Virus record (IMG/VR): IMGVR_UViG_3300021495_000001
Coordinates: 1-64,000 of that record
Length of the DNA: 64,000 bases
Reading direction: 5' to 3' (one strand)
From: a virus
Under the pieces are notes generated by a model that was not told where the DNA came from, ran no database searches, and saw nothing but the letters and a program-made list of their open reading frames with translations. The position numbers were made by a program, and so were the translations under genes. Within the stretch, counting starts at the first letter, position 1. The number at the start of each line of letters is the position of its first letter. Shown here one piece after another: positions 22,440 to 57,295 of this stretch.

Positions 22440-23074
22440 CCCCCAAAAATCCTCCTATACCCCGTCAACTCAAAAAACACACTGTACAACTGCTCAATCT
22501 CTTCAATCTGACCTGTAGTCAAGTAATACCTAAAATCAGCTAGTTTCCTGTCATGTACCCAGTCCCTCCTCAACCTACTTTCCAAGATATTCGCCCGCAA
22601 AGCCCTATCCACAACATCCAAAGGGACATCCACCCCTAAATGCCCGAATAACTGCCTAAAAGTAATAGATGCATGGGGACCTGTAGCCTGTTCATAAGAG
22701 ACTAAATGTACAAAAGGTTTACCCCAGTAACCCAAAAACCAACAAACATACCGTGATAAGCAATTGGGGTGAGTAATCAACATATCAATGCTCTCTTTTA
22801 GCCCCTTCCCCTTTACTACTAGGTCCAAGGGATGGATGGGAATATCACGGACATAAAAATAAACAGACACCACCACATCCCGTATATCCCTGTATATACC
22901 AAATATCTGCCTATCCTTGCACAAACCTAAACTGCTTGAATAGGGTAAATGCTGATGGCCATCTATCGCATCATTTAGTACCCTTACCCCTACCCTCTCA
23001 GCAATATACCTAACCACATCATGGAAATACACTGAGGCACTTCTAGGCATCCCCACCGCATATACCTCTTTCAT
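22436..23074 (-). CDS. Sulfotransferase-like protein
   Basis: 5'-PSB-like GMPRSASVY and 3'-PB-like IYRDIRDVVVSVYFY motifs. The start at MKEVY forms an ATGA overlap with the upstream stop. Confidence 0.5.
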   Translation of the reverse strand: MKEVYAVGMPRSASVYFHDVVRYIAERVGVRVLNDAIDGHQHLPYSSSLGLCKDRQIFGIYRDIRDVVVSVYFYVRDIPIHPLDLVVKGKGLKESIDMLITHPNCLSRYVCWFLGYWGKPFVHLVSYEQATGPHASITFRQLFGHLGVDVPLDVVDRALRANILESRLRRDWVHDRKLADFRYYLTTGQIEEIEQLYSVFFELTGYRRIFGG

Positions 23075-23697
23075 CCCCCCTTCCCCTCCTTCCAAAACAC
23101 CATCAGACTGTGCTCCTCCCCTGTTCCATCCACATCCCCCACCACCTCAACCATTATGCAGTGTAGTGGGGAAAACAGATGCTTATACTTATCCACCCCT
23201 CTATACCAAATATGCTCTTTATCCTCCAACCAAATACTGGTATTCTCATACAGCACTAAATAGCCATCTGGGGCTAATACTCTAGCAAGCTCACTGGTTA
23301 CCTGTCTTATACATGAGGGTGGGATATGTTGAAGAACCGTCCAGCTGAACACACCACCAAACTGAGCATCAGAAAAAGGAAGCCACAAACCATCATACTG
23401 GGCAAAGATCCCTTTTGGCACTCTTTTTTTAGCCTCCTTTACAGCCCACTCTACTATATCTACCCCATATACTTGCTTACAAAAAGAGGCCAGAAAGGCA
23501 GCCCACCTACCCCAACCACAACCAAAATCCAACACTACCCTGTCACGAAACAAAAACTGCAACAAACCCTCATACTGCTTCTGCAGTCTAGTTGTTTGGG
23601 CCGTAAGCTGGGCTGAGGACAGCTTGCAATGGCCTACTGCTTTACAGCCTTGCTCTCTATACCGCCTACACCAATACCCCCTTCTATCTTCTTTCAT
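23071..23697 (-). CDS. Class I SAM-dependent methyltransferase
   Basis: VVLDFGCGWGRWAAFLA (motif I), VYGVDI, GGVFSWTVLQHI, LAPDGYLVLYE. Confidence 0.75.
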   Translation of the reverse strand: MKEDRRGYWCRRYREQGCKAVGHCKLSSAQLTAQTTRLQKQYEGLLQFLFRDRVVLDFGCGWGRWAAFLASFCKQVYGVDIVEWAVKEAKKRVPKGIFAQYDGLWLPFSDAQFGGVFSWTVLQHIPPSCIRQVTSELARVLAPDGYLVLYENTSIWLEDKEHIWYRGVDKYKHLFSPLHCIMVEVVGDVDGTGEEHSLMVFWKEGKGG

Positions 23698-24395: not shown

Positions 24396-26006
24396 CTAAT
24401 ATTCCTCCTCTCCATCAGGCCACCAATTACTCACCCTCTTCCCCCTCTCACTCATTACTATCTGCTCCAACCCCACCCCCTTAGCCAATGCATTAAATGC
24501 CCCTGCTGCTGCATCTACCTGGTCTTTGTATGTCCCATGGGGGAAAAACCGATGCTCCTCTATAAACTCCTCGTTCCATCCCCCCTGTAACAATACTACA
24601 TTCCCTGCATTCACCTGCACGCTATACGGGTCAGCCCTGTATACCTTGTTTCCAGTGGGTCGGTCTATCTCAACATGAAACCCAGCAAGATTTCTCACCG
24701 TCCCCTCAGCGCTCTCCTTTCCCCCACTCCCCGGCTCCTGCTCCACATACACCACACACCCACTACCATCCACCTCAGCCACCTCCCTGATTATCCTCTC
24801 CCTCTCATCACTACTCCACCTCCCCCGCCTAACATCCAATACCATAAACTTCCCATTATTCAACTTACACATCTTTACCCCCACCGTATATGCCCCACCA
24901 CCCTCTGTCCCTGCCTTATCCCAGTACCTCACTGTTTCTACTATGTCTATAGGCAAGGGTAGCTGGGTAGCTATTTGGAAATGCTCCACTTTGAACATCC
25001 CCCCGCCGGGTGGTACAGGGTGCTGTCCTACCTGCCCCGCATAACCATACTGGCCTAGCTCTGCCTGCATATCCTCTAGCACCTTCCACGGCATCCGTAC
25101 TGGGTCCAGCAAGCCATTCACATAGTACCGGCACAGCTCTGGTGGTTGTAGTTGCTCTCGGTAGTTCTGTATCTCCCCCGGCAAACATATCAGCCTCACC
25201 CCCTTCCAGCTCCGTAGTATATGTCCTGAGGGGTCATTTTGGTGGAGGCGTTGCATAATGAGTATCACCGGGGTCACTTCCTTGTCTGCCTTCCGTGTTG
25301 ATAGCGTCTGGTCTATCCACCGGTTTGCACTTTGCAGTTCCTTCTCACTCACTGCCCTATTTGGGTCTACTGGGTCATCCACTATCAATATATGTCCATG
25401 AAACCCAGTCAGTGTGCCCCCTACAGATGTGGAGTACCGGTTACCGCCTGGCCTTACTACTTCTCCTTTACTGTGGCGGACTATACGGAAATTGCTTTTA
25501 GTATCCTTGTCTTTTTTTACACTTAGGTGGGGAAAAAGAGCCTTAAACCTATCACTACGGACTATATCACGGCTTTTCTCTGCATGCTCCAAAGCCAATG
25601 CACCGCTATAACTGGCAACTATAAAGCACATCCAATACCAATTTACCCAACACCAGACTGGAAGCATTACACTGCATACGGTTGATTTTGTGGTTCCTGG
25701 GGGGATATTTATTACTAGGTCATACTGTTTGGGCTCTCGGTTAGCCACCTGTCTGGCCATCCTTGCAAGTTCACTGCATAGGTATTTTATATGCCAGTTC
25801 CACACTGGGGGGTCGTTGCTCACTACTGGCCAAAAGTATTGTAGAAAATAGAAGAAATCCCGCCGACATAGTTCTGCCCGCAGTTCATTCCTCATACCGT
25901 AGAGTTTATAAGCTTGTTGAAACTGTTGTTTTCGTTCTTCATAGTGTTTCTTTCGGATAAACCCCAGACGGCTACTCTTGCTTATCTTTCCCATCAGCCT
26001 GCTCAA
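24396..26006 (-). CDS. terL: Terminase large subunit
   Basis: Walker A-like INIPPGTTKST and Walker B HILIVDDP. The C-terminal nuclease region VEQEPGSGGKESAEG...YRADPYSVQVNAGNVVLL..GWNEEFIEEHRFFP.GTYKDQVDAAAGAFN is typical of Terminase_6-type TerL. Confidence 0.85.
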   Translation of the reverse strand: MSRLMGKISKSSRLGFIRKKHYEERKQQFQQAYKLYGMRNELRAELCRRDFFYFLQYFWPVVSNDPPVWNWHIKYLCSELARMARQVANREPKQYDLVINIPPGTTKSTVCSVMLPVWCWVNWYWMCFIVASYSGALALEHAEKSRDIVRSDRFKALFPHLSVKKDKDTKSNFRIVRHSKGEVVRPGGNRYSTSVGGTLTGFHGHILIVDDPVDPNRAVSEKELQSANRWIDQTLSTRKADKEVTPVILIMQRLHQNDPSGHILRSWKGVRLICLPGEIQNYREQLQPPELCRYYVNGLLDPVRMPWKVLEDMQAELGQYGYAGQVGQHPVPPGGGMFKVEHFQIATQLPLPIDIVETVRYWDKAGTEGGGAYTVGVKMCKLNNGKFMVLDVRRGRWSSDERERIIREVAEVDGSGCVVYVEQEPGSGGKESAEGTVRNLAGFHVEIDRPTGNKVYRADPYSVQVNAGNVVLLQGGWNEEFIEEHRFFPHGTYKDQVDAAAGAFNALAKGVGLEQIVMSERGKRVSNWWPDGEEEY

Positions 26007-26535
26007 TCTGCTCTATGGCCTGCACTAACTGATGTAGCTGTTCCACTGTCAACCTGCTTGGGTCTATCACTCGCTCTGCCTTTAATGGTCCTCCTTGTGG
26101 GCCCGTCAGCTCATGCACTTCCCTCAACCCTAAGCTCCGTGCCACCAGACCTGGGTTAAAAAACCCTAACACTGCGCCCTCAAACCTTTGTTGATATAGT
26201 ATTTGTTCCACCATATCCATCACTGCCAGATACCCCTCCTCCCCCCGCTCCTTCTTTACCCGTCGGGTGTAATACCACCAATGCTTTGTCATACCTAAAA
26301 AAGTGCAGAAACCCTCCAGAGTGAAAGGCCGTGGACGGGGGATTTTCTCTCTTCCCTTTTGGCCTTTATGGAACACCAGTTGCTCCTCATACAACGGGTT
26401 ATCCTCTACCCATTTAAAATACTGGCAGGCCGCCCGCCATAACGATTCAGGGGTAGGGTATTTGGGGGGTCGGGTAGGGGTTGGATAGAGGGGGGCATGG
26501 GTTGCCCGTTTTTGCCACCATCGGGTTCGTCTCAT
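25972..26535 (-). CDS. terS: Terminase small subunit (gp3-type)
   Basis: PTPESLWRAACQYFKWVEDNPL...RPFTLEGFCTFLGM resembles small-terminase N-terminal DNA-binding domains. It is the first gene of the late arm and overlaps the terL start. Confidence 0.6.
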   Translation of the reverse strand: MRRTRWWQKRATHAPLYPTPTRPPKYPTPESLWRAACQYFKWVEDNPLYEEQLVFHKGQKGREKIPRPRPFTLEGFCTFLGMTKHWWYYTRRVKKERGEEGYLAVMDMVEQILYQQRFEGAVLGFFNPGLVARSLGLREVHELTGPQGGPLKAERVIDPSRLTVEQLHQLVQAIEQIEQADGKDKQE

Positions 26536-26619
26536 CTCTTTATATAGTATAAGGGAAAAGGGGTGGAAAAATAAAGGGGGAAAATTTTAAAAAAATTTAA
26601 AAAAATTTCAAAAAAGGGC

Positions 26620-26648
26620 TTGACTTTTTGAAAAAGCTATTATATAAT
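26620..26648 (+). promoter_or_regulatory. Early rightward sigma-70 promoter (TTGACT-17-TATAAT)
   Basis: TTGACT at 26620-26625, a 17-nt spacer, TATAAT at 26643-26648. Phased A-tracts lie upstream (26581-26615). It sits 30 nt upstream of ATG 26678 with RBS aggagg. Confidence 0.65.
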
Positions 26649-26677
26649 AGGGTAAAATAAAGGAAGGAGGTAAGAGG

Positions 26678-33248: not shown

Positions 33249-34172
33249 ATGACGGCACTTGAACAACTACTACAAGACTACCATGTTCCTTTCCAAACCA
33301 CTGGACACAAACACTGCAGGCCAGGGTGGGCAAACATGCCATGCCCTTTTTGCACAGGTAACCCTGGTCTGCATTTAGGGGTGCATCTAAGTACCAACAC
33401 ATGGACATGTTGGCGGTGCGGTCCTAAACCCCGCTGGGTAGCCCTAGCAAAAGTGCTTGGGGTAGACTCCCAAGAGGCAAAAAAGCTCTTCAAACAGTAC
33501 CAAAAACAATATGGATGTGGATACCCATCCCCCCAAAATACAAACAAGCTAATCAAGATTAGACCTACCAAACTACCCTCTGACTGTGGACAGTTGATGT
33601 ATCATCACAAGCAATACTTGATACAGCGGGGGTTTGATCCTGAGAAGATAGAGAGGGAGTGGGGGGTGAAAGGGGCTGGTCCTGCTGCCATGCTAGATAA
33701 GGTAGAGTACAAAAACCGCATAATCATCCCTATATACTGGGATAACAGGCTAGTGTCTTTCCAAGGCCGTACAATCAGAGAGGGGGTAGAACCAAAATAC
33801 AAAGCCTGCCCAAAAACCCGTGAAGCCATCCCCCACCAGACCATTCTCTATGGAAAACAAGAGGCATGGAGCAGTGGGGCGGGGATATGTGTAGAGGGGG
33901 TAATGGATGTATGGAGGTTGGGGAAAGAGGCTTTTGCTGTGTTTGGGATATCATATACTAAAAAACAAATCAGGTGGATAGCAAAACTTTTCAAGCGAGT
34001 TTTCATTGTTTTTGATGATGACCCACAAGCACAACGACAGGCACAAAAGCTGGTAGGAGAGTTGGCTTTCAGGGGGGTGGAGGTAGAAAACGTAGAAATA
34101 GAAGGAGACCCAGGGGGAATGAAGCAAGAGGAGGCAAGATATTTAGTAAAAAATTTATTAAGGAAATGGTGA
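33249..34172 (+). CDS. DNA primase (zinc finger plus TOPRIM)
   Basis: Zinc finger CPFCTGNPGLHLGV...WTCWRCG. TOPRIM: ICVEGVMDVWRL and VFIVFDDDPQAQRQAQK. Confidence 0.65.
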   Translation: MTALEQLLQDYHVPFQTTGHKHCRPGWANMPCPFCTGNPGLHLGVHLSTNTWTCWRCGPKPRWVALAKVLGVDSQEAKKLFKQYQKQYGCGYPSPQNTNKLIKIRPTKLPSDCGQLMYHHKQYLIQRGFDPEKIEREWGVKGAGPAAMLDKVEYKNRIIIPIYWDNRLVSFQGRTIREGVEPKYKACPKTREAIPHQTILYGKQEAWSSGAGICVEGVMDVWRLGKEAFAVFGISYTKKQIRWIAKLFKRVFIVFDDDPQAQRQAQKLVGELAFRGVEVENVEIEGDPGGMKQEEARYLVKNLLRKW

Positions 34173-34197
34173 AAAGTGAGTATAATAATATAGAGGA
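34157..34197 (+). promoter_or_regulatory. Conserved phage promoter element, copy 1
   Basis: ATTAAGGAAATGGTGAAAAGTGAGTATAATAATATAGAGG: TTAAGG at 34158-63, 17-nt spacer, TATAAT at 34181-86. It overlaps the primase stop. Confidence 0.55.
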
Positions 34198-34205
34198 GGT
34201 AAATA

Positions 34206-34392: not shown

Positions 34393-35271
34393 ATGAAAAA
34401 AGAAATTAGACTAGCAGTAAGGGGGCTTTATGATTTACAAAAAATAAGGATACAAATAGGAAACAGATTACACAATCACTATCTAAACAAGCTTGGTGTT
34501 AAGCCTAGTGAAGAAAAAGATAAAACAATAGGGTGGCTAACAGAACGCCTAAAAGAGGAGCACAAAAGGATTGTTGATGGAATGCTACATGAAAAAAACT
34601 TAATCAAAAACTTAAGTAGAATTCTAGGCACAGAAAAAGGGCTTATCTCAACTGAAACAGAATTTGCTCTCTCCTCAGCATACCTGCACCTGTGTGAAGA
34701 TGAAGAAAGACAAATCAAATTTCTTAAAAAACTCCTTGAAGACATCCCCATCTACAACAGCTTCCTAAAAGAAGTCAAAGGAGTTGGCCCCCAAATGGCA
34801 GGGGTAATAATCTCTGAGTTTGACATTACCAAAGCAAAATACGTAAGTAGTCTCTGGAAATATGCTGGGTTGGATGTTGTAGTGACTGCTGATGGTGAAG
34901 TGATGGGGAGGAGAATGAGCAAGAAATGTTGTAAAGTAATTGAATATATTGCTAAAAATGGAGAAAAGAAAGAAAGGTTATCACTAACTTACAATCCATT
35001 TCTGAAAAGCAAACTACTAGGCGTCCTCGCTAAATCATTCATTAAGCTGAAAAGTCCTTACCGCAAATTTTATGATGATTATAAACATAGGTTACAAAAC
35101 CACCCAAAGCACAAAAACAAAAGTAAAGGGCATATAGACAACATGGCAAAGCGGTATATGATAAAAATGTTCCTAATTGACCTGTATGTGAAGTGGAGAA
35201 AATTATCAGGTTTGTCTGTACACCCCAGTTATGCTGAAGGAAAACTTGAAATTAAACACAAAGCAGGTTAA
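34393..35271 (+). CDS. Protein with IS110-family transposase C-terminal (HhH, Transposase_20-like) domain only
   Basis: LKEVKGVGPQMAGVIISEFDITKAKYVSSLWKYAGLDVV...YNPFLKSKLLGVLAKSFIK...MAKRYMIKMFLIDLYVKW matches the IS110 C-domain pattern. The N-terminal 130 aa are coiled-coil-like with no DEDD/RuvC-like motif. Confidence 0.5.
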   Translation: MKKEIRLAVRGLYDLQKIRIQIGNRLHNHYLNKLGVKPSEEKDKTIGWLTERLKEEHKRIVDGMLHEKNLIKNLSRILGTEKGLISTETEFALSSAYLHLCEDEERQIKFLKKLLEDIPIYNSFLKEVKGVGPQMAGVIISEFDITKAKYVSSLWKYAGLDVVVTADGEVMGRRMSKKCCKVIEYIAKNGEKKERLSLTYNPFLKSKLLGVLAKSFIKLKSPYRKFYDDYKHRLQNHPKHKNKSKGHIDNMAKRYMIKMFLIDLYVKWRKLSGLSVHPSYAEGKLEIKHKAG

Positions 35272-37480: not shown

Positions 37481-39049
37481 ATGCAAAAACCTGATAGGAT
37501 GATAGAGAGGCGGATAGTGATTGGGATGATAGTTAGCACTGATTACCTATCTAGGGTGTCCAGAATTTGGTCCCCTGCTTTTTTCACCTCAGACGCTGCA
37601 CGAATTATCAGCACTTGGTGTATGGAATATTTCAACAAATATGCTAAAGCCCCCAACACAGACATAGAAGCCATATTCTATGACAAACTGGCATCTAAAA
37701 AAATCCCCCAAGATTTAGCTGAGGAGTTTGAGGAGGAGATTTTACCAGGGTTGTCAGAGGAGTATGACAGGGAGGGGAAGTTTAACTCGGGTTACCTCTA
37801 TGACCAGACAGTAAAATATTTTAAAGCACAACAACTCCGCCTCCACAGCCAACAGATACAACAGCTTACTGAACAGGGACGGTATGATGAGGCAGAGAAG
37901 CTGGCGCAAGAGTTTAAACCCACTGTGTTAGATGAGGTTAGCATCGGGTTGGATTTAGCAAGTGAGGAAGCACAGGAGCGGGTAGAACGGGCGTTTAATG
38001 CTGAACTCCAGCATCTAATCAACTACCCTGGTGCATTGGGGGACATGTGGAATGACCATTTGGTGAGAGGGGGCTTTGTGGGATTGATGGGGCCTGAAAA
38101 GCGGGGGAAGACCATGTGGTTAATAGAGCTAGCTATGCGTGCAGTGAGACAAAAATGTAATGTGGCTTTTTTTGAAGCAGGGGATATGTCTGAGCCACAA
38201 ATACTGAGGCGGATATGTATCTATATAGCTAAGAAATCAGATAGACTGCGGTATTGTGAGGAGTTTTATAAGCCTGTGGGGGATTGTGCTAAGAACCAGT
38301 TGGACAAATGCCAGCGGTCTGACCGTAACTGTAATTTTGGTGCATTGGCTGAGGTGTTTCCTAATACATCTGTGAAAGATCTGAGGGGGCAGTTGAAATA
38401 TGATGAGCTGGTAGAGATAGTAAAAGAGAACCCAGACTATGAGCCTTGTGATAGTAGCAAATGTGATGAGCGGGTGGGTAGTATTTGGTTGGTGCGTGTG
38501 CCTAAAAAGAGGCCACTGACAGGGCAAGAGGCAAAGAAGCATCTAAAAAAGTTTTTTACTAAATACAAACGCCATTTTAAACTGATGGTCTATCCAGCAG
38601 ACACACTAACAGTAGCGGAGATGAAGAGGTGTCTTGATGTATGGGAAAGGCAGGAGGGGTTTGTGCCTGATGTGATTTGTGTTGACTATGCGGATCTCTT
38701 AACAGCACCAGTAAGGGAGTTTCGCCACCGACAGGACTACATCTGGAAAAACTTGCGGGCATTGTCTTTGGAAAGACATTGTCTAGTGTTAACAGCCACA
38801 CAGGCAGATGCAGAAAGCTATAAAGCTAACCGTTTACAGCTGTCCAACTTCAGTGAGGACAAGCGTAAGTATGCCCATGTGACAGCTATGTATGGGCTAA
38901 ACCAAGACCCAGAGGGAAGGGAGAAAGAGTTAGGGATAATGCGGATAAATGAGCTAGTAGTGAGGGAAGGAGAGTTTAGCCCTGTTAATGAGGTGACGGT
39001 GCTTCAGTGTTTGAGAATGGGGCGGGCTTTTTTGGAGAGTTATAAATAG
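37481..39049 (+). CDS. DnaB-like replicative helicase (RecA-fold)
   Basis: Walker A GLMGPEKRGKTMW, Walker B VICVDYADLL, then LVLTATQADAES. Confidence 0.6.
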   Translation: MQKPDRMIERRIVIGMIVSTDYLSRVSRIWSPAFFTSDAARIISTWCMEYFNKYAKAPNTDIEAIFYDKLASKKIPQDLAEEFEEEILPGLSEEYDREGKFNSGYLYDQTVKYFKAQQLRLHSQQIQQLTEQGRYDEAEKLAQEFKPTVLDEVSIGLDLASEEAQERVERAFNAELQHLINYPGALGDMWNDHLVRGGFVGLMGPEKRGKTMWLIELAMRAVRQKCNVAFFEAGDMSEPQILRRICIYIAKKSDRLRYCEEFYKPVGDCAKNQLDKCQRSDRNCNFGALAEVFPNTSVKDLRGQLKYDELVEIVKENPDYEPCDSSKCDERVGSIWLVRVPKKRPLTGQEAKKHLKKFFTKYKRHFKLMVYPADTLTVAEMKRCLDVWERQEGFVPDVICVDYADLLTAPVREFRHRQDYIWKNLRALSLERHCLVLTATQADAESYKANRLQLSNFSEDKRKYAHVTAMYGLNQDPEGREKELGIMRINELVVREGEFSPVNEVTVLQCLRMGRAFLESYK

Positions 39050-39060
39050 AAAATTTTATC

Positions 39061-39102
39061 ATTAAGGAAATGGGGCAGAACGAGTATAATAAATATAGAG
39101 GA
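39061..39102 (+). promoter_or_regulatory. Conserved phage promoter element, copy 2
   Basis: ATTAAGGAAATGGGGCAGAACGAGTATAATAAATATAGAGG: TTAAGG at 39062-67, 17-nt spacer, TATAAT at 39085-90. Confidence 0.55.
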
Positions 39103-39124
39103 GAGGAATAAAGGAGGAGCAAAA

Positions 39125-39712
39125 ATGAAAAAGACAGAAATTACGAAGGAAGAGTTAGCTTATGTGGCAAAAGAGATGACAGAGTACATGCAACTAGAGC
39201 CACCAATTGAGGTTGATGGAAGTATAGAGGAGCTAAAAAGTGAAGTAGAGGAGGCTGCTGAGCTGATTGAGGAGGGGGATGAGTTTACGGAGAGAACAAT
39301 AAAGGTGTTAAAGGCCTTAGGGGTGGACTTGCCTGAAGGGATTGGGGTGAAAAAGACCCAAGAGGAGAGCAAAGAGGACGCCCCAGTAAGTAAACCCCCA
39401 GCACCAGTTAAGAAAGAGAAAAAGAAAGAGGAAAGTCCACAGAAGGTAAAAATGTCAAAACCAAAGCTACAGGTGGTAAAGAAAGCTCAACAAGGGCAAA
39501 AAACACGGGCACAGGTGATGGCTGAGATAGTAAGGAGTACAAGGAAGAAACCACTTAGCACTAAGGAAATGATTGAGAGGATGAAAAAGGTATATGGTGG
39601 AAGTGAAAAGGAAGCTGTGTATCAGGTTAGGCATTACATTGGGTTATTGGTGGCGCTTAGCCTCCTGTCTGTGAATGATAAAGGCAAATATACATATACT
39701 ATTACTTCCTAG
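39125..39712 (+). CDS. Acidic/Lys-rich protein with C-terminal wHTH-like domain
   Basis: 195 aa with an acidic N-terminus, a KKEKKKEE linker and the C-terminus TRAQVMAEIVRSTRKKPLSTKEMIERMKKVYG. Confidence 0.45.
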   Translation: MKKTEITKEELAYVAKEMTEYMQLEPPIEVDGSIEELKSEVEEAAELIEEGDEFTERTIKVLKALGVDLPEGIGVKKTQEESKEDAPVSKPPAPVKKEKKKEESPQKVKMSKPKLQVVKKAQQGQKTRAQVMAEIVRSTRKKPLSTKEMIERMKKVYGGSEKEAVYQVRHYIGLLVALSLLSVNDKGKYTYTITS

Positions 39713-39722
39713 CTAACTGCAT

Positions 39723-41429
39723 ATGAGAGAGCTTGGCCATAAAGGGTTTTTTGACATAAAACCACACCAGAGGGGGCTTGCTGGGCAGTTTTTACTCCCC
39801 CCCTTCTCTGTCCTCCACACCTACACGGGTGAGTGGAAGAGGAGGAAACAACAATGGCTTGCACTTGGGATTAAGGGGGAAGTAGGAAGAGAATGTAGAG
39901 TTTATACTAATCGTGAGTGGGTAAGAAAAAAACTACCACATGAAAAAGGGCTCTGTGTGAATTTAACTGCAGGAGGGGTTAGTGTATTTGACCCTGTCCT
40001 ATGTGAGCTAATGTATAGTTGGTTTTGCCCTAAAGGTGGTGGCATCTTAGACCCCTTTGCTGGTGGGTCAGTGCGTGGTGTGGTGGCCTCTTGTATGGGG
40101 TATAAATACTATGGCTGTGAGATCTGCCCTGAGCAAGTGCAGGCTAATAGAGAGCAGGCAGTTGAGATTTTTGGAAGGTATGGAGTAGATAGCTTAACAC
40201 CTGTTCAATATATTATAGATGGTGTTTACTTAAAAAGGGATGATTATTTTAATGTTTTGGGTTTGAGGGGTGGGAAAGTAAGGACGGCGTACACTTTGTT
40301 GAAGAAGGCAGATAGCAACACTATTGTAACTGCTGGTGCAAGGCAGAGCCCACAGATAGCAATTGTCTCTGCATTATCATATTGGCTAGGCAAAACCTGC
40401 CATTGTTTTGTCCCAACTGGTGAAGAGACAGAGATGATTAATATAGCAAGGTATTTTAAAGCAAAAGTACATAAGGTAATGCCAGGCCGTAACAGTGTCC
40501 TCATATCAAGAGCAGTAGAGTTTGCCAAGAAAAGAGAGTTTTGCTATATCCCTTTTGGCATGGAGTGTGAGGAGGCAGTTGAGGAGACAGCAAAACAGGT
40601 GCAAAACCTCCCTTTTGATAAAATCAATAAAATTGTCCTCCCTGTTGGTTCAGGTATGAGCTTGGCTGGGGTTATTACTGGGTTAAAGAGACTTGGTATT
40701 AAAAAGAAAGTATTAGGTATTGTAGTAGGTGCAAACCCAGAAAGGAGGCTTGATAAATTTGCACCAAGCTGGGAGGACTATGTTGAGCTCATCAGAGTGG
40801 GTAAGCAGTATCATGAGGAGGAGAGAGTGGATGAGAAGTGGGGTGTTCATTTTGATAAAATTTATGAAGCTAAATGTTTAGGCTTCGTAGAAAAAGGAGA
40901 CCTGTTTTGGGTTGTTGGTATGAGACCTAAACTTGAGGAGGTTGTGGGTGAGAATTACCCAAAGTGGATTGTTGGTGATAGTAATAAGGTGTTAGATGGG
41001 CTGATAGAAAAGGGGGTAAAGTATGATTTTATCTTTACCTGCCCACCATATGGTAATTTAGAAGTGTATAGTGACTTGGAAGGTGATATTAGTAATATAC
41101 AAAGTTATGATAAGTTTTTGGAGGCTTACAGTAGTATAATCCATAAGGCTTGCCATTGTCTAAGGCAGAACCGTTTTGCTTGTTTTGTGGTAGCTAACTA
41201 TAGAGATAAAAAGGGGTTTTACCATGATTTTGTGGGTGATACCATACGGGCATTTGAAGAGTGTGGGGCGCATTTTTATAATGAGTTGATTTTGGTGACA
41301 CCCCCGGGTAGCCTTCCTGTGCGTGCAGGGAGGGTCTTTAGTAGCACAAGGAAGGTAGGCAAGATGCACCAGAATGTTTTGGTTTTTTATAAAGGTGATG
41401 TTAAAAAAATAAAAGAGATTTTTAAGTGA
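39723..41429 (+). CDS. DNA (N6A/N4C) methyltransferase with an inserted fold-type-II PLP-enzyme domain (ACC deaminase / cysteine synthase-like)
   Basis: Methyltransferase N-terminal half: PPFSVLHTYTGEWKRRKQQWLALGI, ILDPFAGGSVRGVVA. Inserted domain: YLKRDDYFNVLGLRGGKVRTAYTLL, TAGARQSPQIAIV, LPVGSGMSLAGVITG. Methyltransferase C-terminal half: KWIVGDSNKVL, DFIFTCPPYGNLEVYSD, FYNELILV. Confidence 0.65.
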   Translation: MRELGHKGFFDIKPHQRGLAGQFLLPPFSVLHTYTGEWKRRKQQWLALGIKGEVGRECRVYTNREWVRKKLPHEKGLCVNLTAGGVSVFDPVLCELMYSWFCPKGGGILDPFAGGSVRGVVASCMGYKYYGCEICPEQVQANREQAVEIFGRYGVDSLTPVQYIIDGVYLKRDDYFNVLGLRGGKVRTAYTLLKKADSNTIVTAGARQSPQIAIVSALSYWLGKTCHCFVPTGEETEMINIARYFKAKVHKVMPGRNSVLISRAVEFAKKREFCYIPFGMECEEAVEETAKQVQNLPFDKINKIVLPVGSGMSLAGVITGLKRLGIKKKVLGIVVGANPERRLDKFAPSWEDYVELIRVGKQYHEEERVDEKWGVHFDKIYEAKCLGFVEKGDLFWVVGMRPKLEEVVGENYPKWIVGDSNKVLDGLIEKGVKYDFIFTCPPYGNLEVYSDLEGDISNIQSYDKFLEAYSSIIHKACHCLRQNRFACFVVANYRDKKGFYHDFVGDTIRAFEECGAHFYNELILVTPPGSLPVRAGRVFSSTRKVGKMHQNVLVFYKGDVKKIKEIFK

Positions 41430-41444
41430 GAGGGGTAGTATATG

Positions 41445-41543
41445 TGGCCGTGCTGAGTTTTACCCTCCCTCCTCTACTACACCTCCTTCCCCTGTTTACA
41501 GACAGGGTTTAGGGAGTGGGTTTTGTAGGCACGGCCATTTTTT
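41445..41543 (+). terminator. Long compound hairpin followed by T6 (putative terminator / structured RNA)
   Basis: Outer stem tggccgtgc (41445-53) pairs with gcacggcca (41529-37), followed by tttttt. Inner pairings are accctccct/agggag(tg)ggt and ccctgt-ttacag-acaggg (41490-41507). Confidence 0.45.
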
Positions 41544-41557
41544 ACAAGGAGGAACAA

Positions 41558-42595
41558 ATGGAAAGAGAAAAGTTATTAAAAGCATTAGAGGTTGTTAGAC
41601 CAGGGCTGTCAAACAAAGGTTTTATAGAGCAGATGGGTTGTTTTATTTTTACAGGGGATAGAGTGGTTACTTACAATGATGAAATTACCATTACCCACCC
41701 TCTACAAACAGGAATAACGGGGGCAGTGAGAGCAGAACAACTGTATAAGTTGCTTGGTAAACTACCTGACCACCGTATTAGGCTTAGGGCAACTGAAACA
41801 GAGCTGTTGGTGTCTGATGGGAAAATTAAAGCAGGCATCCCTTTACAAACAGAGATAGAACTCCCCCTTCTGGATTATAGCAAGATAAAGGGCTGGGTGA
41901 AAATACCAGAGGGCTTTTTAGAAGCAGTTAAATTTTGCCTCTTTTCATGTGCTAGAGACATCACCACCCCACAATTGTCTTGTATTTATGTTAATAAAAA
42001 AGGGGGGTCAGTGGAGTCCACAGATAATTTCCGTCTTACCAGGGTTAATGTGGGGGGGCTTGATGCGTTCCCTGCCTCTTTCTTACTCCCTGTCCATGCA
42101 GCGGAGGGAGTATTTGCCAATGAGGGGGGAGTGGAAGAGATAGCAGTGGGGGAGAACTGGGTGCATTTTAGGTTGGGTAACCAGTGTATGTTTAGTGCTA
42201 GGACTTATACAGAAGTCCAATATCCTAATCTTTCAGAGGTCATCCATCAGTTTGAACAAAAAAAAGAGAAGGTAAAAATCACTTTACCAAAAACCCTTCC
42301 TGACATCCTCCAGCGAGCAATGATATTTGCTGGTGACAGTGGGACTGAACGGGTTACAGTGTCTGTATTGTCAGGGAAGATGGAAGTGAGGGCAGAGGGA
42401 GTAAATGGATGGTTTAAAGAAGTGGATGAGGTGGACTATGAGGGGGAGACAGTAGTGTTTCGTATTAACCCTCATTATCTAGCTGATATATGTGAGAAGA
42501 CTAATTATCTTGAGGTAACTGATAGGCTAGCAGGATTTAGAAGTGAAGAGTGGATACATATTGTGGCATTGATGTCTGAGAAGGAGGAGACATAG
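41558..42595 (+). CDS. DNA polymerase sliding clamp, beta (DnaN-like)
   Basis: 345 aa. LLKALEVVRPGLSNKGFIEQMGCFIFTGDRVVTYNDEITITHPL... shows the three-fold beta-clamp-like pattern. Start is set at MEREKLL after aaggagg. Confidence 0.55.
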   Translation: MEREKLLKALEVVRPGLSNKGFIEQMGCFIFTGDRVVTYNDEITITHPLQTGITGAVRAEQLYKLLGKLPDHRIRLRATETELLVSDGKIKAGIPLQTEIELPLLDYSKIKGWVKIPEGFLEAVKFCLFSCARDITTPQLSCIYVNKKGGSVESTDNFRLTRVNVGGLDAFPASFLLPVHAAEGVFANEGGVEEIAVGENWVHFRLGNQCMFSARTYTEVQYPNLSEVIHQFEQKKEKVKITLPKTLPDILQRAMIFAGDSGTERVTVSVLSGKMEVRAEGVNGWFKEVDEVDYEGETVVFRINPHYLADICEKTNYLEVTDRLAGFRSEEWIHIVALMSEKEET

Positions 42596-43194: not shown

Positions 43195-45777
43195 GTGGGC
43201 TTTTTCAACCTAGTAAGTGAAAAAACTAGAGGTGGCTGTGTTTCCTGTGGCTTATATAAAAATGCAACTAACCCCCAGATAAAGCCATACGGCCATTTTA
43301 AACTAGGCATTCTAAATGTAGGCCAAAGCCCTGGTGAGGTAGAAGATAGAAGAGGGAAGCCTTGGCAGGGGAGAGCTGGACGGGTGCTTAGACAGGCATA
43401 TAGAGAGCTAGGGGTGTCCTTGTTCAGGGATTGCCTAAACATTAATGCAGTGAACTGCCGTCCAATAGACAAAAAAGGCAATAACAGAACCCCCACAAAT
43501 AATGAGATTAACTGTTGCCGTCCACGAGTGCTGAGAACCATTAAGGAGAACCACCCCAAAGTGATTGTCCTCTTAGGTGGTGAAGCAGTGCAGAGTGTAA
43601 TAGGCCATAGATGGAAAAAGGACTTAGGGGGGATAATGAAATGGAGGGGGTGGTGTATACCAGATAGAGACCTGCATGCATGGGTCTGCCCTGTCTTCCA
43701 CCCCAGCTATGTTATGAGGCAGGAGAGGGAGGATGTGGCATGGACAGTATGGAGGCAGGATTTAGAGAGAGCTTTAGGTATGATACATACCCCTTTCCCC
43801 ACTTTTACTGAAGAAAGAGAAAAGGTAAGAATAGTAAAACAACCAAGGGCGTTATTTGAAAAGCTGAGAAAAGAAACTCCATCTATGAACCCACCATACC
43901 TAGCCTTTGATATAGAGACAACTGGAATAAAGCCGTATGACAAACAAAACCATCAGGTAGTTTGCATGTCTTTTTGTAATAGCCCAGATATTGTTTATGT
44001 CACCCCAGCACCAATTGAGAGGGCTGATGTAGAGGCTCTAAAAAAATTGCTAGAGGATAAGAGGATTGGAAAGATTGCACATAATATGAAGTTTGAAGGA
44101 ACATGGATGAAGGTAATGTATGGGATAGAGGTAAGAGGGTGGGTATGGGATAGCATGATAGCTGCACATGTTTTAGACAACCGCCCAGATATAACAGGGC
44201 TTAAGTTTCAGGTGTATATCCGTTTTGGGATACCAGATTATGATAGTGAGATTACACCATACCTGAGGGGAAAAGACCCCAAAAATGCTAACTCAGTGAA
44301 TAGAATTATGGAGCTGGTGAGGTCTCCTGTGGGCTTTACTAAGTTGATGAACTATTGTGGGCTGGATAGCTTGTTTACTTACCAGCTAGCAATAAAACAG
44401 ATGAAAGAGATAAAACAGTATGAGAAAGGTTATGGATTATTTCATAATGGTGCTTTAGCATTAATGCGAGCAGAGTGGGCTGGAATGAGGGTGGATGTAG
44501 AGTATTGTAAACGAAAAAAGAGACTTTTGTCCAAAAAGGTCAATTTCTACCAACATAAACTGGAAGAGACTAAACTGGCTCAGTTATGGAAAAAGAGATT
44601 TAGGGATAAGGTGAACTGGAACAGCAACCAGCAGTTATCCCATATTCTTTACCATGTCATGAAAATAACTCCACCCAAGCTAACTGCCACAGGGGCTGGT
44701 GCAACAGATAATGAGGCATTGGAAAAGATAAATGTCCCTGGGGTGGGTTTGATATTGCAGATCCGTAGACTGAAAAAAATCCGAGACACCTACCTAGAGG
44801 CTTTTCTGAGAGAACAAGTAGGGGGCTGGATGCATCCCCATTTTGACCTGCACACAGTGCGTAGCTACCGTAGCTCTAGCTCTTCCCCTAATTTCCAAAA
44901 TATACCTAATCGGGATAGAGAGGCAATGAAAATATGCCGAGGGGCTATATACCCACGGCCAGGGCACTTGATATTAGCCCCTGATTTCAGTGGGATAGAG
45001 GTGATGGTTGCCTGCTGTTACACAAAGGATGAGCGGCTGATTTATGATGCTGTCCATGGGGATATGCATAGGGATATGGCAATGGAGCTGTATATGTTAG
45101 ATAGCCTAGACAAACACCACCCTGGTGAAAAGAATTTCCGCCAAGGGGGGAAGAACGGGTTTGTATTCCCCCAATTTTATGGAGATTATTATATGAACTG
45201 CGCCCAGGGGCTGTTAGAGTGGGCGAAAGTGGCATATCGCAGGGATGGCACACCAGGGTTGGTGCATCTTCAGGATAAAGGATTGGTTAAGTTGGATAAA
45301 AAAGGTGAGATAAAAAGCTGTGATAAATTTATTGAGCATGTACGGGCAGTGGAAGACCAGTTTTGGAATGTAAGGTATAAAGGGTACACAGAATGGAAAG
45401 AGAGAACCTGGAGGGAATATCAAAAGAAGGGCTATGTGGAGATGTTTACTGGATTTAGATGTGGCGGGGTGATGCGGAGAAACGAAGTATTAAACATCCC
45501 CATACAAGGCTCAGCTTTTCACTGCTTGTTGTGGTCTTTTATTGAAATTGGCAGGATAAGTGAAGAGGAAGGGTGGGATAGCAGATTATTCGGGGAGATA
45601 CATGATGAGATGCTGATTGACACCCACCCAGAAGAACTTGAACATGTAAAGAAGACAGTAGAGAGGGTAACCACGGTAGAGCTACCCAAGGCTTTTTCAT
45701 GGATAATTGTTCCATTGAAAGTAGAAATAGAAGTACATCCTGTAGATGGTTGTTGGGCAAAGAAAGAAAGTCATTAA
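43195..45777 (+). CDS. Family-4 uracil-DNA glycosylase domain fused to a family A DNA polymerase (3'-5' exo plus pol)
   Basis: UDG: GCVSCGLYKNA, LNVGQSPGEVEDRRGKPWQGRAGRVL, NAVNCRP, FHPSYV. Exo: LAFDIETTG. Pol motif A DFSGIEVMVACCY, motif B RQGGKNGFVFPQFYG, motif C GEIHDEMLID. Confidence 0.85.
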   Translation: MGFFNLVSEKTRGGCVSCGLYKNATNPQIKPYGHFKLGILNVGQSPGEVEDRRGKPWQGRAGRVLRQAYRELGVSLFRDCLNINAVNCRPIDKKGNNRTPTNNEINCCRPRVLRTIKENHPKVIVLLGGEAVQSVIGHRWKKDLGGIMKWRGWCIPDRDLHAWVCPVFHPSYVMRQEREDVAWTVWRQDLERALGMIHTPFPTFTEEREKVRIVKQPRALFEKLRKETPSMNPPYLAFDIETTGIKPYDKQNHQVVCMSFCNSPDIVYVTPAPIERADVEALKKLLEDKRIGKIAHNMKFEGTWMKVMYGIEVRGWVWDSMIAAHVLDNRPDITGLKFQVYIRFGIPDYDSEITPYLRGKDPKNANSVNRIMELVRSPVGFTKLMNYCGLDSLFTYQLAIKQMKEIKQYEKGYGLFHNGALALMRAEWAGMRVDVEYCKRKKRLLSKKVNFYQHKLEETKLAQLWKKRFRDKVNWNSNQQLSHILYHVMKITPPKLTATGAGATDNEALEKINVPGVGLILQIRRLKKIRDTYLEAFLREQVGGWMHPHFDLHTVRSYRSSSSSPNFQNIPNRDREAMKICRGAIYPRPGHLILAPDFSGIEVMVACCYTKDERLIYDAVHGDMHRDMAMELYMLDSLDKHHPGEKNFRQGGKNGFVFPQFYGDYYMNCAQGLLEWAKVAYRRDGTPGLVHLQDKGLVKLDKKGEIKSCDKFIEHVRAVEDQFWNVRYKGYTEWKERTWREYQKKGYVEMFTGFRCGGVMRRNEVLNIPIQGSAFHCLLWSFIEIGRISEEEGWDSRLFGEIHDEMLIDTHPEELEHVKKTVERVTTVELPKAFSWIIVPLKVEIEVHPVDGCWAKKESH

Positions 45778-45813
45778 GGAAATGGAGAAAAATGAGTATA
45801 ATAATATAGAGGG
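45773..45813 (+). promoter_or_regulatory. Conserved phage promoter element, copy 3
   Basis: ATTAAGGAAATGGAGAAAAATGAGTATAATAATATAGAGGGG: TTAAGG at 45774-79 (its TAA is the polymerase stop), 17-nt spacer, TATAAT at 45797-802. Confidence 0.55.
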
Positions 45814-53007: not shown

Positions 53008-54087
53008 ATGATTAAATCTGTTACTATACAAAACTTTCAAAGCCATAAAAATACTACACTAGAGTTTTCAAAAGGGGTAAATGTCATTGTTGGGCTTTCT
53101 GATGCAGGAAAATCAGCTATCTTCCATGCAGTGAACTGGGTAATAACTAACAGGCCTCTAGGGGATGCTTTCAGAAGTGATTGGGGCGGAAAAACAAGGG
53201 TAGAGCTGACCTTAGACCCAGGTGGTAAAGTAGTACGAGAGAAAGATAAAAATAAGAACCAATACCTCATTTACCCAGCCCAAGATGATGACCCCCTAGT
53301 GTTAGAAGGGTTTGGCTCTGAGCCACCAGGAGAAGTTAATATACTTATGAACATGGACAGTATCAATATACAAAACCAAGCTGACCCACCATTCCTTCTG
53401 ATGAGTAGCCCAGGGGAGGTTGCACAAATGCTAAACAAGGCGGCCTCCATTGATGACATTGACCGAGTTACTTCCAGCCTACGAAGTACACACCGTCGGC
53501 TACAACAGGCAGACCAGACAGACCAAGAAAGACTGGAGGAATACAAAAAGGAGCTGGATAAATATGCAGAGTTGCCAAGGTTGGAAAAGGAGATAGGAAG
53601 GCTGGAGCAGCTAGAACAGGATAAGAAAGAGATGGAAAGGCAACTAACAGAACTAGATGATCTGTGTGAACAGTGGGAAGATTTGGAAGAGCAGTTGCAT
53701 AAGACAGAAGGGGTAGAACAGAGTCTAAAGTTGCTGAGCGAAGTGGAAAAGCAGGCAGAGGAATGGAGAGGGGTAAAAGGGCGATATGAGCAACTAAGAG
53801 GGTTGTATAGGGATGCTATTACATTAGAAAGAAAACTAAGGAAAATAAAGAAGATAACTATTATCACAGAGCGGTTTGAGGAGACAGAGAAAGCATATCA
53901 GGCATGGGTAGAGGTAAAAGAAGAGAGCAAAAGGTTGATGGATTTAGAAAGGAAAGGAAGACAAATCACACAAAGAATTGAGACATGTGAAAGAGAGGCA
54001 AGCAGGCTAAGTAAGGAGTTTCATGCTTTATGCCCAGATACCTGCCCACTTTGTGGTGCCCCTATGAGAGTGAAAAAAAGACATTAA
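53008..54087 (+). CDS. SbcC/Rad50-like ATPase, N-terminal half (Walker A, coiled coil, zinc hook)
   Basis: IKSVTIQNFQSHKNTTLEFSKGVNVIVGLSDAGKSAIFHAV, a long coiled coil, and a C-terminal CPDTCPLCG hook-like motif. Confidence 0.7.
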   Translation: MIKSVTIQNFQSHKNTTLEFSKGVNVIVGLSDAGKSAIFHAVNWVITNRPLGDAFRSDWGGKTRVELTLDPGGKVVREKDKNKNQYLIYPAQDDDPLVLEGFGSEPPGEVNILMNMDSINIQNQADPPFLLMSSPGEVAQMLNKAASIDDIDRVTSSLRSTHRRLQQADQTDQERLEEYKKELDKYAELPRLEKEIGRLEQLEQDKKEMERQLTELDDLCEQWEDLEEQLHKTEGVEQSLKLLSEVEKQAEEWRGVKGRYEQLRGLYRDAITLERKLRKIKKITIITERFEETEKAYQAWVEVKEESKRLMDLERKGRQITQRIETCEREASRLSKEFHALCPDTCPLCGAPMRVKKRH

Positions 54088-54124
54088 GGAAATAGGGAAG
54101 AGCGAGTATAATAATATAGAGGGG
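54083..54124 (+). promoter_or_regulatory. Conserved phage promoter element, copy 4
   Basis: ATTAAGGAAATAGGGAAGAGCGAGTATAATAATATAGAGGGG: TTAAGG at 54084-89 (its TAA is the upstream stop), 17-nt spacer, TATAAT at 54107-12. Confidence 0.55.
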
Positions 54125-56911: not shown

Positions 56912-57295
56912 ATGAAAAAAGATGCATTAGAAATGAGTAAAGCAATTCGTAGGGCAATTTTTGTCTATGAAGGAGCAAGATTACATGCAAGAATGCTTAA
57001 TTGTCCAGTAATTCCTGAACCTTGGAATGAACGAGAGGAAGAATTTAAGTCACAATTTATTGAGCTTGTGGATGATTTAATTACAGGGAAACGAGTATTT
57101 TCTGACCCTAGAACCGCACATGATTCTTGGATGAAGAAGTATGAAGAAATGGGATGGATATTTGGTAAAGAGTATGACCCAGACAGAAAAATACATCCAG
57201 ACCTTGTTCCCTATGAAAAATTAGACCCGAGAGAAAAGGTGAAGGATGATGTGTTTCTTACTCTAGTTAATATAGCAGGTGAATACATCTGGTAA
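56912..57295 (+). CDS. RyR-domain protein
   Basis: AHDSWMKKYEEMGWIFGKEYDPDRKIHPDLVPYEKLDPREKVKDD matches the RyR repeat pattern (W..GW.yG...d...K.hP.LvpY..L...eK). Confidence 0.65.
   Translation: MKKDALEMSKAIRRAIFVYEGARLHARMLNCPVIPEPWNEREEEFKSQFIELVDDLITGKRVFSDPRTAHDSWMKKYEEMGWIFGKEYDPDRKIHPDLVPYEKLDPREKVKDDVFLTLVNIAGEYIW

Follow-up and report, generated by a model that had tools for sequence, protein, structure and literature searches.

Introduction

To our knowledge, all pyridoxal phosphate (PLP)-dependent steps of DNA modification known so far sit in multi-gene thymidine pathways that start from 5-hydroxymethyl-deoxyuridine (5-hmdU). Two of the phage enzymes responsible have been characterized, i.e., ViI gp226, a PLP-dependent decarboxylase which converts O-serinyl-thymidine to 5-aminoethoxymethyl-deoxyuridine (5-NeOmdU) in DNA, and M6 gp52, which decarboxylates C-alpha-glycinyl-thymidine in DNA; K92 of gp226 and K36 of gp52 were proposed as their PLP lysines (Lee et al., NAR 2021, PMC8989533). 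Here, we describe a gene found in a 64,000-nucleotide stretch of viral DNA (IMG/VR record IMGVR_UViG_3300021495_000001, positions 1 to 64,000; hereafter called the window), in which a domain related to gp226 and gp52 is inserted into a DNA methyltransferase (MTase). We estimate at roughly 0.5 the probability that the product of this gene is a self-contained bifunctional phage enzyme performing coupled DNA hypermodification.

Both parts of this protein have better known relatives. 1-aminocyclopropane-1-carboxylate (ACC) deaminases and D-cysteine desulfhydrases (1f2d, 1tzk, 1j0a, and 4d8t) have free small molecules as their substrates and are not joined to nucleic-acid enzymes. The MTase part resembles beta-class N6A/N4C MTases (TTHA0409, 2zie; the N4C MTase 8s9n; CcrM, 6pbd) and the phage ParB-MTase family, represented by gp77 of Listeria phage B054, gp36 of Enterococcus phage phiFL3A, and gp1 of mycobacteriophage Vincenzo. 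A survey of ParB CTPases lists ParB-N6N4 MTase fusions but not PLP fusions (PMC12704722), and full-text literature searches yielded no publication describing an MTase-PLP fusion.

Domain Architecture and Fold of the Fusion Protein

The gene occupies positions 39723..41429 of the plus strand and encodes a protein of 568 aa (followed by a stop codon), whose architecture, according to Pfam and PHROGs, is MTase(N)-PALP-MTase(C). The Pfam domain PF01555 (N6_N4_Mtase) was detected with 48.1 bits (gathering cutoff 26.7), split into two stretches, and PF00291 (PALP) with 45.7 bits (gathering cutoff 35) at residues 168-350. In the PHROGs database, the open reading frame (ORF) was resolved into three families: phrog_12517, an uninserted methylase family of 316 positions, which matched the MTase core (8e-90), phrog_498 (ParB-methyltransferase), which matched the MTase part, and phrog_3650, a family of no annotated function, which matched the insert (4e-31). 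These results assign the protein, by sequence, both to the phage ParB-MTase/phrog_12517 methylase family and to PF00291.

The fold prediction was in line with this division. The AlphaFold2 model computed from an alignment of 50 homologues had a mean predicted local distance difference test (pLDDT) score of 84.5, exceeding 90 across most of both domains, and a predicted template modelling (pTM) score of 0.69, and the top PDB folds found with Foldseek were those of D-cysteine desulfhydrase and ACC deaminase (4d8t, 1tzk, and 1j0a; E-value of about 1e-13, probability 1.00). The initial annotation, made without database searches, had described the flanks as a phage-type N6A/N4C-like MTase and the insert as a fold-type-II PLP enzyme of the ACC-deaminase/D-cysteine-desulfhydrase branch. 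Both descriptions agree with the present results, as PF01555 scored above its cutoff, motifs I and IV are present and aligned, and PF00291, Foldseek, and the PDB profile search all point to the same kind of insert; the PLP fold, on which that reading depended, was thus found, and the catalytic lysine (K185) is retained. Its view of a domain insertion lacking intein or endonuclease signatures was likewise sustained, since no Hint, LAGLIDADG, HNH, or GIY-YIG domain was present among the Pfam, NCBIfam, and PHROG matches of the ORF and PALP accounts for the whole insert.

Catalytic Motifs and Relatives of the PLP Domain

Conservation within the protein was scored in an alignment of 50 fusion homologues showing 44-50% identity. 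The invariant residues of the PLP domain were K185, R172, D174, S209-P210-Q211, G309, S310, M312, G316, G320, Y381, E382, K384, W396, and G399. The predicted PLP Schiff-base lysine, K185 (40275..40277, plus strand, as are all features of this gene), occurs in 50/50 fusion homologues; it is the lysine of an 'RGGK' motif aligned with the 'GNK' of ACC deaminases, as the initial annotation had anticipated, and its column contains K in the wild-type yeast ACC deaminase and T in 1j0c, a PDB entry described as 'mutated to catalytic residue'. S209-P210-Q211 (40347..40355), the counterpart of the 'SNQ' PLP-contact motif of ACC deaminases, is aligned to 'QSNQ' of 1f2d/1j0e. The glycine-rich phosphate-binding loop G309-S310-G311-M312...G320 (40647..40682) is aligned to 'GSGGTLAG' of 1j0a; the segment 'VGSGMSLAG', aligned with 'GSGGTLAG', agrees with the glycine phosphate loop that had been proposed previously, and 'TAGARQSPQ' is aligned with 'GGRQSNQ'. 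The PDB sequence search also aligned the insert with the ACC deaminase homologue 1j0a at GGK/GNK, at 'RQSPQ'/'HSNH', and in the 'GSG' loop. Near the C-terminus of the domain, Y381-E382-A383-K384 (40863..40874) corresponds to 'YEGK' of ViI gp226 and 'YDLK' of M6 gp52. Y381/E382 may be equivalent to Tyr294/Glu295 of ACC deaminase (the pyridine-N1 ligand).

Among NCBIfam models, those of ACC deaminase and D-cysteine desulfhydrase ranked first for the middle part of the protein, albeit far below their curated cutoffs (TIGR01275, 42.5 bits vs 289.4; TIGR01274, 30 vs 392). Because these cutoffs are not reached and the insert has 253 aa compared with about 330 aa in the solved enzymes, it is not a member of that family proper; it also carries 'SPQ' in place of 'SNQ' and is fused to an MTase, although its catalytic Lys, Ser motif, and phosphate loop can be aligned with theirs. 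A profile of the phage PLP clade matched the yeast ACC deaminase at 1e-14.

Closer relatives were found among phages. The match to phrog_3650 was far stronger than that to the threonine dehydratase family phrog_7093 (6e-13), and a tblastn search of phage genomes with the insert gave weak matches to a protein of 418-424 aa in ViI-like (Kuttervirus) phages; this protein turned out to be gp226 (ViI orf00226; YP_004327553). In BLASTP, the insert matched ViI gp226 at 1e-13, from the 'KR(D/E)D' motif through the terminal 'LFW(V/I)VG' strand, and M6 gp52 at 1e-5. In a joint alignment covering the full domain, K185 shares one column with gp226 K92 and gp52 K36, and the SPQ Ser, the glycine-loop Ser, Tyr-(Glu/Asp)-x-Lys, and the terminal 'FW.VG' strand are common to all three; S209 is also invariant in Vincenzo gp2 and in the standalone forms. 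The fusion, gp226, and gp52 are all encoded in phage DNA-metabolism modules. By these alignments, the insert is assigned to the phage fold-type-II branch whose two characterized members act on amino acids attached to DNA, and it is placed closer to gp226/gp52 than to the cellular ACC deaminases. This is a resemblance in sequence and not in pathway context: gp226 and gp52 are standalone proteins that act after three other enzymes, namely a deoxyuridine monophosphate (dUMP) hydroxymethylase, a 5-hmdU DNA kinase, and an amino-acid:DNA transferase, and no gene for any of these was found in the window.

Methyltransferase Core

The N-terminal MTase part (residues 1-151; 39723..40175) contains the conserved 'PPFSVL...W..RK..W' segment, motif X (S87-W100), motif I, the motif II strand, and helix B, and its invariant columns are S87, F89, D90, P91, E95, W100, D110, F112, G114, and G115. 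It aligns with the C-terminal part of the beta-class MTase TTHA0409: in the PDB search, residues 91-147 were aligned with 222-278 of 2zie and residues 414-477 with 23-84. The SAM (S-adenosyl methionine)-binding loop of motif I, D110-P-F-A-G-G115 (40050..40067), is 100% conserved in 112 inserted and 123 uninserted relatives; the surrounding region I108-G119 reads ILDPFAGGSVRG, with the core DPFAGGS, and is aligned to motif I of 2zie and CcrM.

The C-terminal MTase part (residues 405-568; 40935..41426) comprises the motif III strand KWIVGDS, motif IV, and motifs V-VIII, with the PF01555 match at residues 435-561. The catalytic loop of motif IV, C440-P-P-Y443 (TCPPY; 41040..41051), is aligned to 'SPPY' of 2zie/8s9n and to 'DPPY' of CcrM, and its C, P, P, and Y are invariant in the alignment of 50 fusion homologues and 99-100% conserved in the same 235 relatives. 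The first residue of this motif is thus Cys throughout the family, whereas it is Ser or Asp in the solved relatives and Asp, Asn, or Ser in known amino-MTases. This Cys is reminiscent of the catalytic one in C5-pyrimidine methyltransferases; it may leave room for unusual chemistry, without being evidence for it.

The order of the motifs is X, I, II, [insert], III, IV-VIII, and not that of the beta class (IV-VIII, target recognition domain, X, I-III). The protein therefore shares with the beta-class MTases the catalytic domain, the FxGxG of motif I, and the PPY loop, and differs from them in the permutation (motif I before motif IV), in CPPY instead of D/S-PPY, and in the PLP domain placed at the breakpoint. 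Judged by its motifs, it is a circularly permuted, PF01555-type putative amino-methyltransferase. From other members of the phage ParB-MTase family, the window copy differs in the lack of the ParB domain and in the PLP insert; an N-terminal ParB is kept in many of the fusion homologues. A remodelling of the MTase active site in the inserted forms was considered and rejected, as the catalytic motifs are the same in inserted and uninserted relatives. A kinship with the single-stranded DNA methylases M.EcoGIX/M.BceJIII was also rejected, since the core had just two weak plasmid matches, neither of that type.

Given the invariance of the residues listed above, both modules look active and are under purifying selection; that both domains are active is a conclusion in which we are highly confident.

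Extent of the Insert and Its Insert-Less Counterpart

The inserted PLP domain comprises R152-L404 (253 aa; 40176..40934). These limits follow from a comparison with the metagenomic protein P0002 (315 aa), which is about 94% identical to both MTase flanks, lacks R152-L404, and in which the two MTase parts are contiguous. In P0002 the junction reads '...QANREQAIEIFG/GEEIGVNYPKW...', and in the protein of the window the corresponding borders read '...QANREQAVEIFG/RYGVDSLTPVQ...RPKL/EEVVGENYPKW...' (slashes mark the junctions). At the DNA level, the contig carrying P0002 (L005) is collinear with positions 38212-40174 (87.6% identity) and 40947-41875 (92.3%) of the window, and it has about 13 bp where the window has about 772 bp, the junction being in frame and seamless. 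A further fragmentary protein (P0001), 94% identical to that of the window, possesses the insert. The lineage of P0002 may have recently deleted the PLP domain, which would be an alternative to an insertion in the lineage of the window.

The insertion site has motif II with helix B (residues 128-150) on its N-terminal side and the 'KWIVGDS' strand of motif III (414-420) on its C-terminal side, and it coincides with the circular-permutation breakpoint, where beta-class MTases have their chain termini. The position between motifs I and IV given in the initial annotation was correct, yet imprecise; its estimate of the insert (250-290 aa, approximately 40200-40950) came close to the measured one. 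The claim that relatives normally have only a short linker at this place holds for P0002 and for more than 100 other uninserted relatives.

Distribution and Linkage of the Two Modules

A search for the same architecture in databases, which the initial annotation had suggested, showed that it is not rare: it was found in more than 100 clusters at 50% identity, the hosts belonging to several bacterial phyla, and GenBank phages already contain it, without remark, under generic names such as 'DNA modification methylase', 'pyridoxal-phosphate dependent enzyme', and 'carboxylate deaminase'. The full protein has thousands of relatives; nearly all of the best 120 contain PF00291 and PF01555, many of them together with an N-terminal ParB, and an exhaustive search of 1.84 billion cluster representatives gave 2006 matches at E<=1e-30. 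The uninserted methylase family is very large as well (at least 8000 matches at E<=1e-10 with P0002 as the query). Hundreds of standalone proteins of about 250 aa, encoded on phage contigs, are homologous to the insert by itself and show 45-50% identity.

The two modules are joined in various ways. In mycobacteriophage Vincenzo, gp1 is a complete uninserted ParB-MTase and the overlapping gene 2 encodes the PLP protein (gp2). In a survey of 79 methylase loci from species-representative genomes, in which a 4-kb neighbourhood was inspected, the insert was present in three loci, an overlapping downstream PLP gene in another three (L023, L042, and L064; Solirubrobacteraceae, Sinorhizobium, and one uncultured), and a tandem fusion in one (L020; a 1185-aa ParB-MTase-PALP protein of Loktanella). 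Among approximately 145 cluster representatives with both modules, the order MTase(N)-PLP-MTase(C) was found in 105, MTase-PLP in 23, and PLP-MTase in six. As the PLP domain can precede, interrupt, or follow the MTase, the two active sites need no fixed arrangement relative to each other. The repeated linkage, as adjacent genes and in three fusion topologies, is strong evidence of the Rosetta stone type that this PLP enzyme and this MTase family act together, and we consider the functional coupling of the two modules to be likely.

The fusion in the window seems to be independent of the main inserted clade. Its MTase core shows up to 71% identity to uninserted proteins and at most 64% to other inserted ones, and its PLP part grouped with standalone proteins in a neighbour-joining tree and scored 18 bits higher with a hidden Markov model (HMM) derived from standalone sequences than with one derived from fused sequences; both tests are heuristic, the tree having no bootstrap support and the HMMs having been trained on the compared sets. 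A single origin of the insertion is thus unsupported, as the PLP part sides with the standalone proteins and the MTase part with the uninserted MTases.

Some long fusion homologues possess additional domains. A domain resembling Fe(II)/2-oxoglutarate-dependent Asp/Asn beta-hydroxylases (AspH-like, PF05118) was found in seven out of 41 representatives (among them P0358, P0413, P0435, and P0470), a QueC-like PP-loop domain located between the MTase and PLP parts in two (P0455 and P0465), and a second, N-terminal class-I SAM methyltransferase in one (P0359). Hydroxylase and carboxylate-activating additions of this kind are typical of multi-step modification pathways, by analogy with which they may be read. 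True inteins or LAGLIDADG endonucleases occur sporadically, in a few of the long homologues.

Proposed Function and Alternative Explanations

The suggestion of the initial annotation that the enzyme may perform DNA hypermodification is better founded now, owing to the kinship with gp52/gp226 and the repeated MTase-PLP linkage; we regard hypermodification, rather than plain methylation, as having about an even chance of being correct. Neither in the window, nearly all larger ORFs of which were covered by the context annotation, nor in the contexts of five other fusion homologues did we find a thymidylate-synthase-like hydroxymethylase, a 5-hmdU kinase (5-HMUDK), or an aGPT-Pplase, and no partner gene recurred across these six contexts. 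Hence, the enzyme appears to need just the ubiquitous substrates DNA, SAM, and PLP. With an amino-MTase-type enzyme as the partner of the PLP domain, neither the target base nor the appended group can be the same as for gp226 and gp52.

In the proposed mechanism, the MTase-type core would bind DNA, flip a base, and alkylate an exocyclic nitrogen with the use of SAM; the PLP domain would then form a Schiff base (external aldimine) with a primary alpha-amine on the new adduct and tailor it, most likely by decarboxylation, and the outcome would be a bulky, positively charged adduct blocking host nucleases. As the 3-amino-3-carboxypropyl (acp) group of SAM is the sole alpha-amino-acid group that a SAM enzyme can deliver unaided, the first step could be acp transfer (+101 Da), and subsequent decarboxylation would give an N-(3-aminopropyl) base (+57 Da). 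By an equivalent route, SAM would be decarboxylated first and the aminopropyl group transferred afterwards, as in spermidine synthase. In its effect, such a base would resemble the aminoethyl and aminoethoxymethyl thymidines whose synthesis involves gp52 and gp226. TYW2, which transfers acp to tRNA, and spermidine synthase, which transfers aminopropyl, are both built on the methyltransferase fold. The phage enzyme CmoX is reported to be a cytosine C5-carboxymethyltransferase, SAM-dependent and placing a non-methyl group on phage DNA (PMC12783734). In all three, an MTase fold moves acp, aminopropyl, or carboxymethyl groups, which makes them an analogy for the proposed mechanism and not a case of shared family membership. 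The acp/aminopropyl chemistry specifically is a tentative proposal, to which we give a low probability.

Several observations weigh against coupled hypermodification. The catalytic motifs are the same in the 112 inserted and 123 uninserted relatives and P0002 is nearly identical in its flanks, so the core probably performs the same chemistry with or without the PLP domain; moreover, the default for this very large MTase family is methyl transfer, and a methyl adduct offers no amine to PLP. A PLP gene was absent within 4 kb in 72 of the 79 MTase loci, and many standalone PLP homologues had no MTase of this family within 7 kb. The identity of the insert to gp52 and gp226 is 22-27%, too low to read the specificity of the PLP reaction from it. 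In the literature searched, we found neither a natural N-aminopropyl or N-acp DNA base nor a biochemically characterized member of this MTase family, the label 'methylase' being an annotation. The unchanged catalytic motifs imply that either the whole CPPY family transfers a non-methyl group, or the core methylates and the PLP domain acts elsewhere.

In the latter case, the core would be an ordinary N6-adenine/N4-cytosine methyltransferase and the PLP domain an auxiliary one not acting on DNA, which could clear the inhibitor S-adenosylhomocysteine (SAH), destroy SAM as an anti-restriction measure (ACC-synthase/ACC-deaminase-type), or act on a free amino acid. Besides the invariant motifs and the insert-less twin, such a role would agree with the fact that the nearest solved folds, ACC deaminase and D-cysteine desulfhydrase, use small molecules, that the standalone homologues are frequently not neighbours of an MTase, and that the PLP domain functions wherever it stands with respect to the MTase, so that tight coupling of the active sites is not needed. 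It fits less well with the insert being a closer relative of the DNA-acting gp226/gp52 clade than of cellular ACC deaminases, and with the further tailoring domains of some fusions; a repeated, independent linkage specific to this DNA MTase family would also be odd for a general metabolic enzyme, and degradation of SAM or SAH is not known to us from any fold-type-II PLP enzyme. We consider this explanation less likely than hypermodification, yet a serious alternative. Rather improbable, in our opinion, is that the PLP domain is itself the transferase, as in beta-replacement enzymes of the cysteine-synthase type, with an aminoacrylate formed from serine, O-acetylserine, or cysteine being attacked by the base that the MTase-like scaffold has flipped, to leave an alanyl group on DNA, and with SAM binding serving methylation at the same or another site, or just DNA handling. 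Fold-type-II enzymes typically catalyse beta-elimination or beta-replacement, cysteine synthase and TrpB were among the weaker profile matches, and no partner enzyme would be needed, which fits the lack of conserved neighbours. However, the best matches are in the ACC-deaminase/D-cysteine-desulfhydrase branch and gp52/gp226, not in cysteine synthases, the invariance of all SAM-binding and catalytic residues of the MTase would not be demanded by a scaffold, and the variable position of the PLP domain speaks against a shared active site.

The idea of a decayed or selfish (intein-like or mobile) insert, non-catalytic and tolerated at a permissive loop, draws on the location of the site at the natural chain break of permuted relatives, on the clean gain or loss of the domain between close relatives, and on the true inteins found elsewhere in some long homologues. 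It is rejected, since K185 and all the PLP-binding motifs are invariant in the 50 homologues, the fold model and the ACC-deaminase matches indicate an intact enzyme domain, and the ORF bears no Hint, LAGLIDADG, or HNH signature. In addition, there is no compositional anomaly or other compositional trace of recent acquisition (GC content of 0.41 in the insert vs 0.47 and 0.39 in the flanks), and this domain is encoded elsewhere by a conserved gene of its own; this explanation is effectively refuted.

Genomic Context and Other Features of the Window

The fusion gene is part of the replication module; the phage itself lacks close relatives in culture (PolA identity of at most 25%). The gene order is: SNF2 helicase, sigma factor, primase, IS110-like transposase, replication initiator, DnaB, an uncharacterized 195-aa protein, the fusion, sliding clamp, PolA with an N-terminal uracil-DNA glycosylase (UDG) domain, clamp loader, gp32-like single-stranded DNA-binding protein, UvsX, and SbcC and SbcD. 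A promoter-like repeated intergenic element of approximately 45 bp occurs at 39058..39105 (plus strand), upstream of ORF 39125, which precedes the fusion gene; three further plus-strand copies lie at approximately 34157-34200, 45771-45812, and 54082-54122, and each of the four is immediately 5' of a gene. The element, with the consensus CATTAAGGAAAT.G.G.A.A...GAGTATAATAATATAGAGG, contains a TATAAT-like box with a Shine-Dalgarno sequence 3' of it, and its conservation extends to the related contig L005. On the basis of the TATAAT-like box, it is probably a phage promoter, and the copy at 39058-39105 likely marks the start of a transcription unit formed by ORF 39125 and the fusion gene.

Within the replication module, the family-A DNA polymerase (43195-45777, plus strand, 860 aa) carries at residues ~32-180 a domain of the uracil-DNA-glycosylase superfamily (PF03167, 1.2e-23); in the related contig L006, the UDG domain is attached to PolIII-alpha instead of a family-A polymerase. 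The IS110/IS116-family transposase-like ORF (34393-35271, plus strand; PF02371; phrog_4285, 5.7e-38) lies between the primase and the replication initiator genes. At about 26000-26650, a divergent control region, marked by a sharp change in the sign of the GC skew and by a strand switch, divides the leftward structural and packaging genes (with the small and large terminase subunits at 25975-26535 and 24399-26006, respectively) from the replication genes, which run rightward.

On the minus strand, a 1115-aa ORF (16592-19936) joins a portal of the Mu type (PF06074) to a Mu-F-like domain for head morphogenesis (PF04233) and has, at residues ~670-810, a Hint/intein region (PF13403, PF07591, and a weak Intein_splicing match); it looks like a portal-MuF fusion that bears an intein. 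A minus-strand block (20719-23697) located between the portal and terminase genes encodes a GT9 heptosyltransferase-like protein (309 aa), a GT2 glycosyltransferase (265 aa), a 219-aa protein without assigned function, and a class-I SAM methyltransferase (Methyltransf_25, 208 aa). The products of this block could act on the virion, on the host surface, or on some other substrate; a connection with the MTase-PLP gene was not established. Finally, a 127-aa ORF (56912-57295, plus strand) contains an RyR domain (PF02026, 1.8e-9), which is occasionally seen in phages.

Significance

By hypermodifying their DNA, phages defeat restriction enzymes and CRISPR nucleases, and the modifications are also a source of new chemistry for biotechnology. 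The pairing described here suggests a second way of making modified DNA, self-contained, undescribed so far, and probably directed at adenine or cytosine, and the MTase-PLP fusion could prove to represent categorically new chemistry. Cultured carriers of these genes exist, i.e., Erythrobacter phage vB_EliS_R6L (R6L), Pseudanabaena phage Pam4, and mycobacteriophage Vincenzo/AlanGrant.

In its boldest form, which we put forward as speculation and think unlikely, the proposal is that a widespread family installs a new base, the CPPY enzyme placing acp on the exocyclic nitrogen of adenine or cytosine and the PLP domain decarboxylating it to the N-(3-aminopropyl) derivative. If true, this would be the first SAM-derived aminoalkyl hypermodification of DNA and the first performed by a single polypeptide; some lineages would further hydroxylate or amidate the aminopropyl base by means of their added domains, and the members of the large uninserted CPPY family may not be simple methylases.

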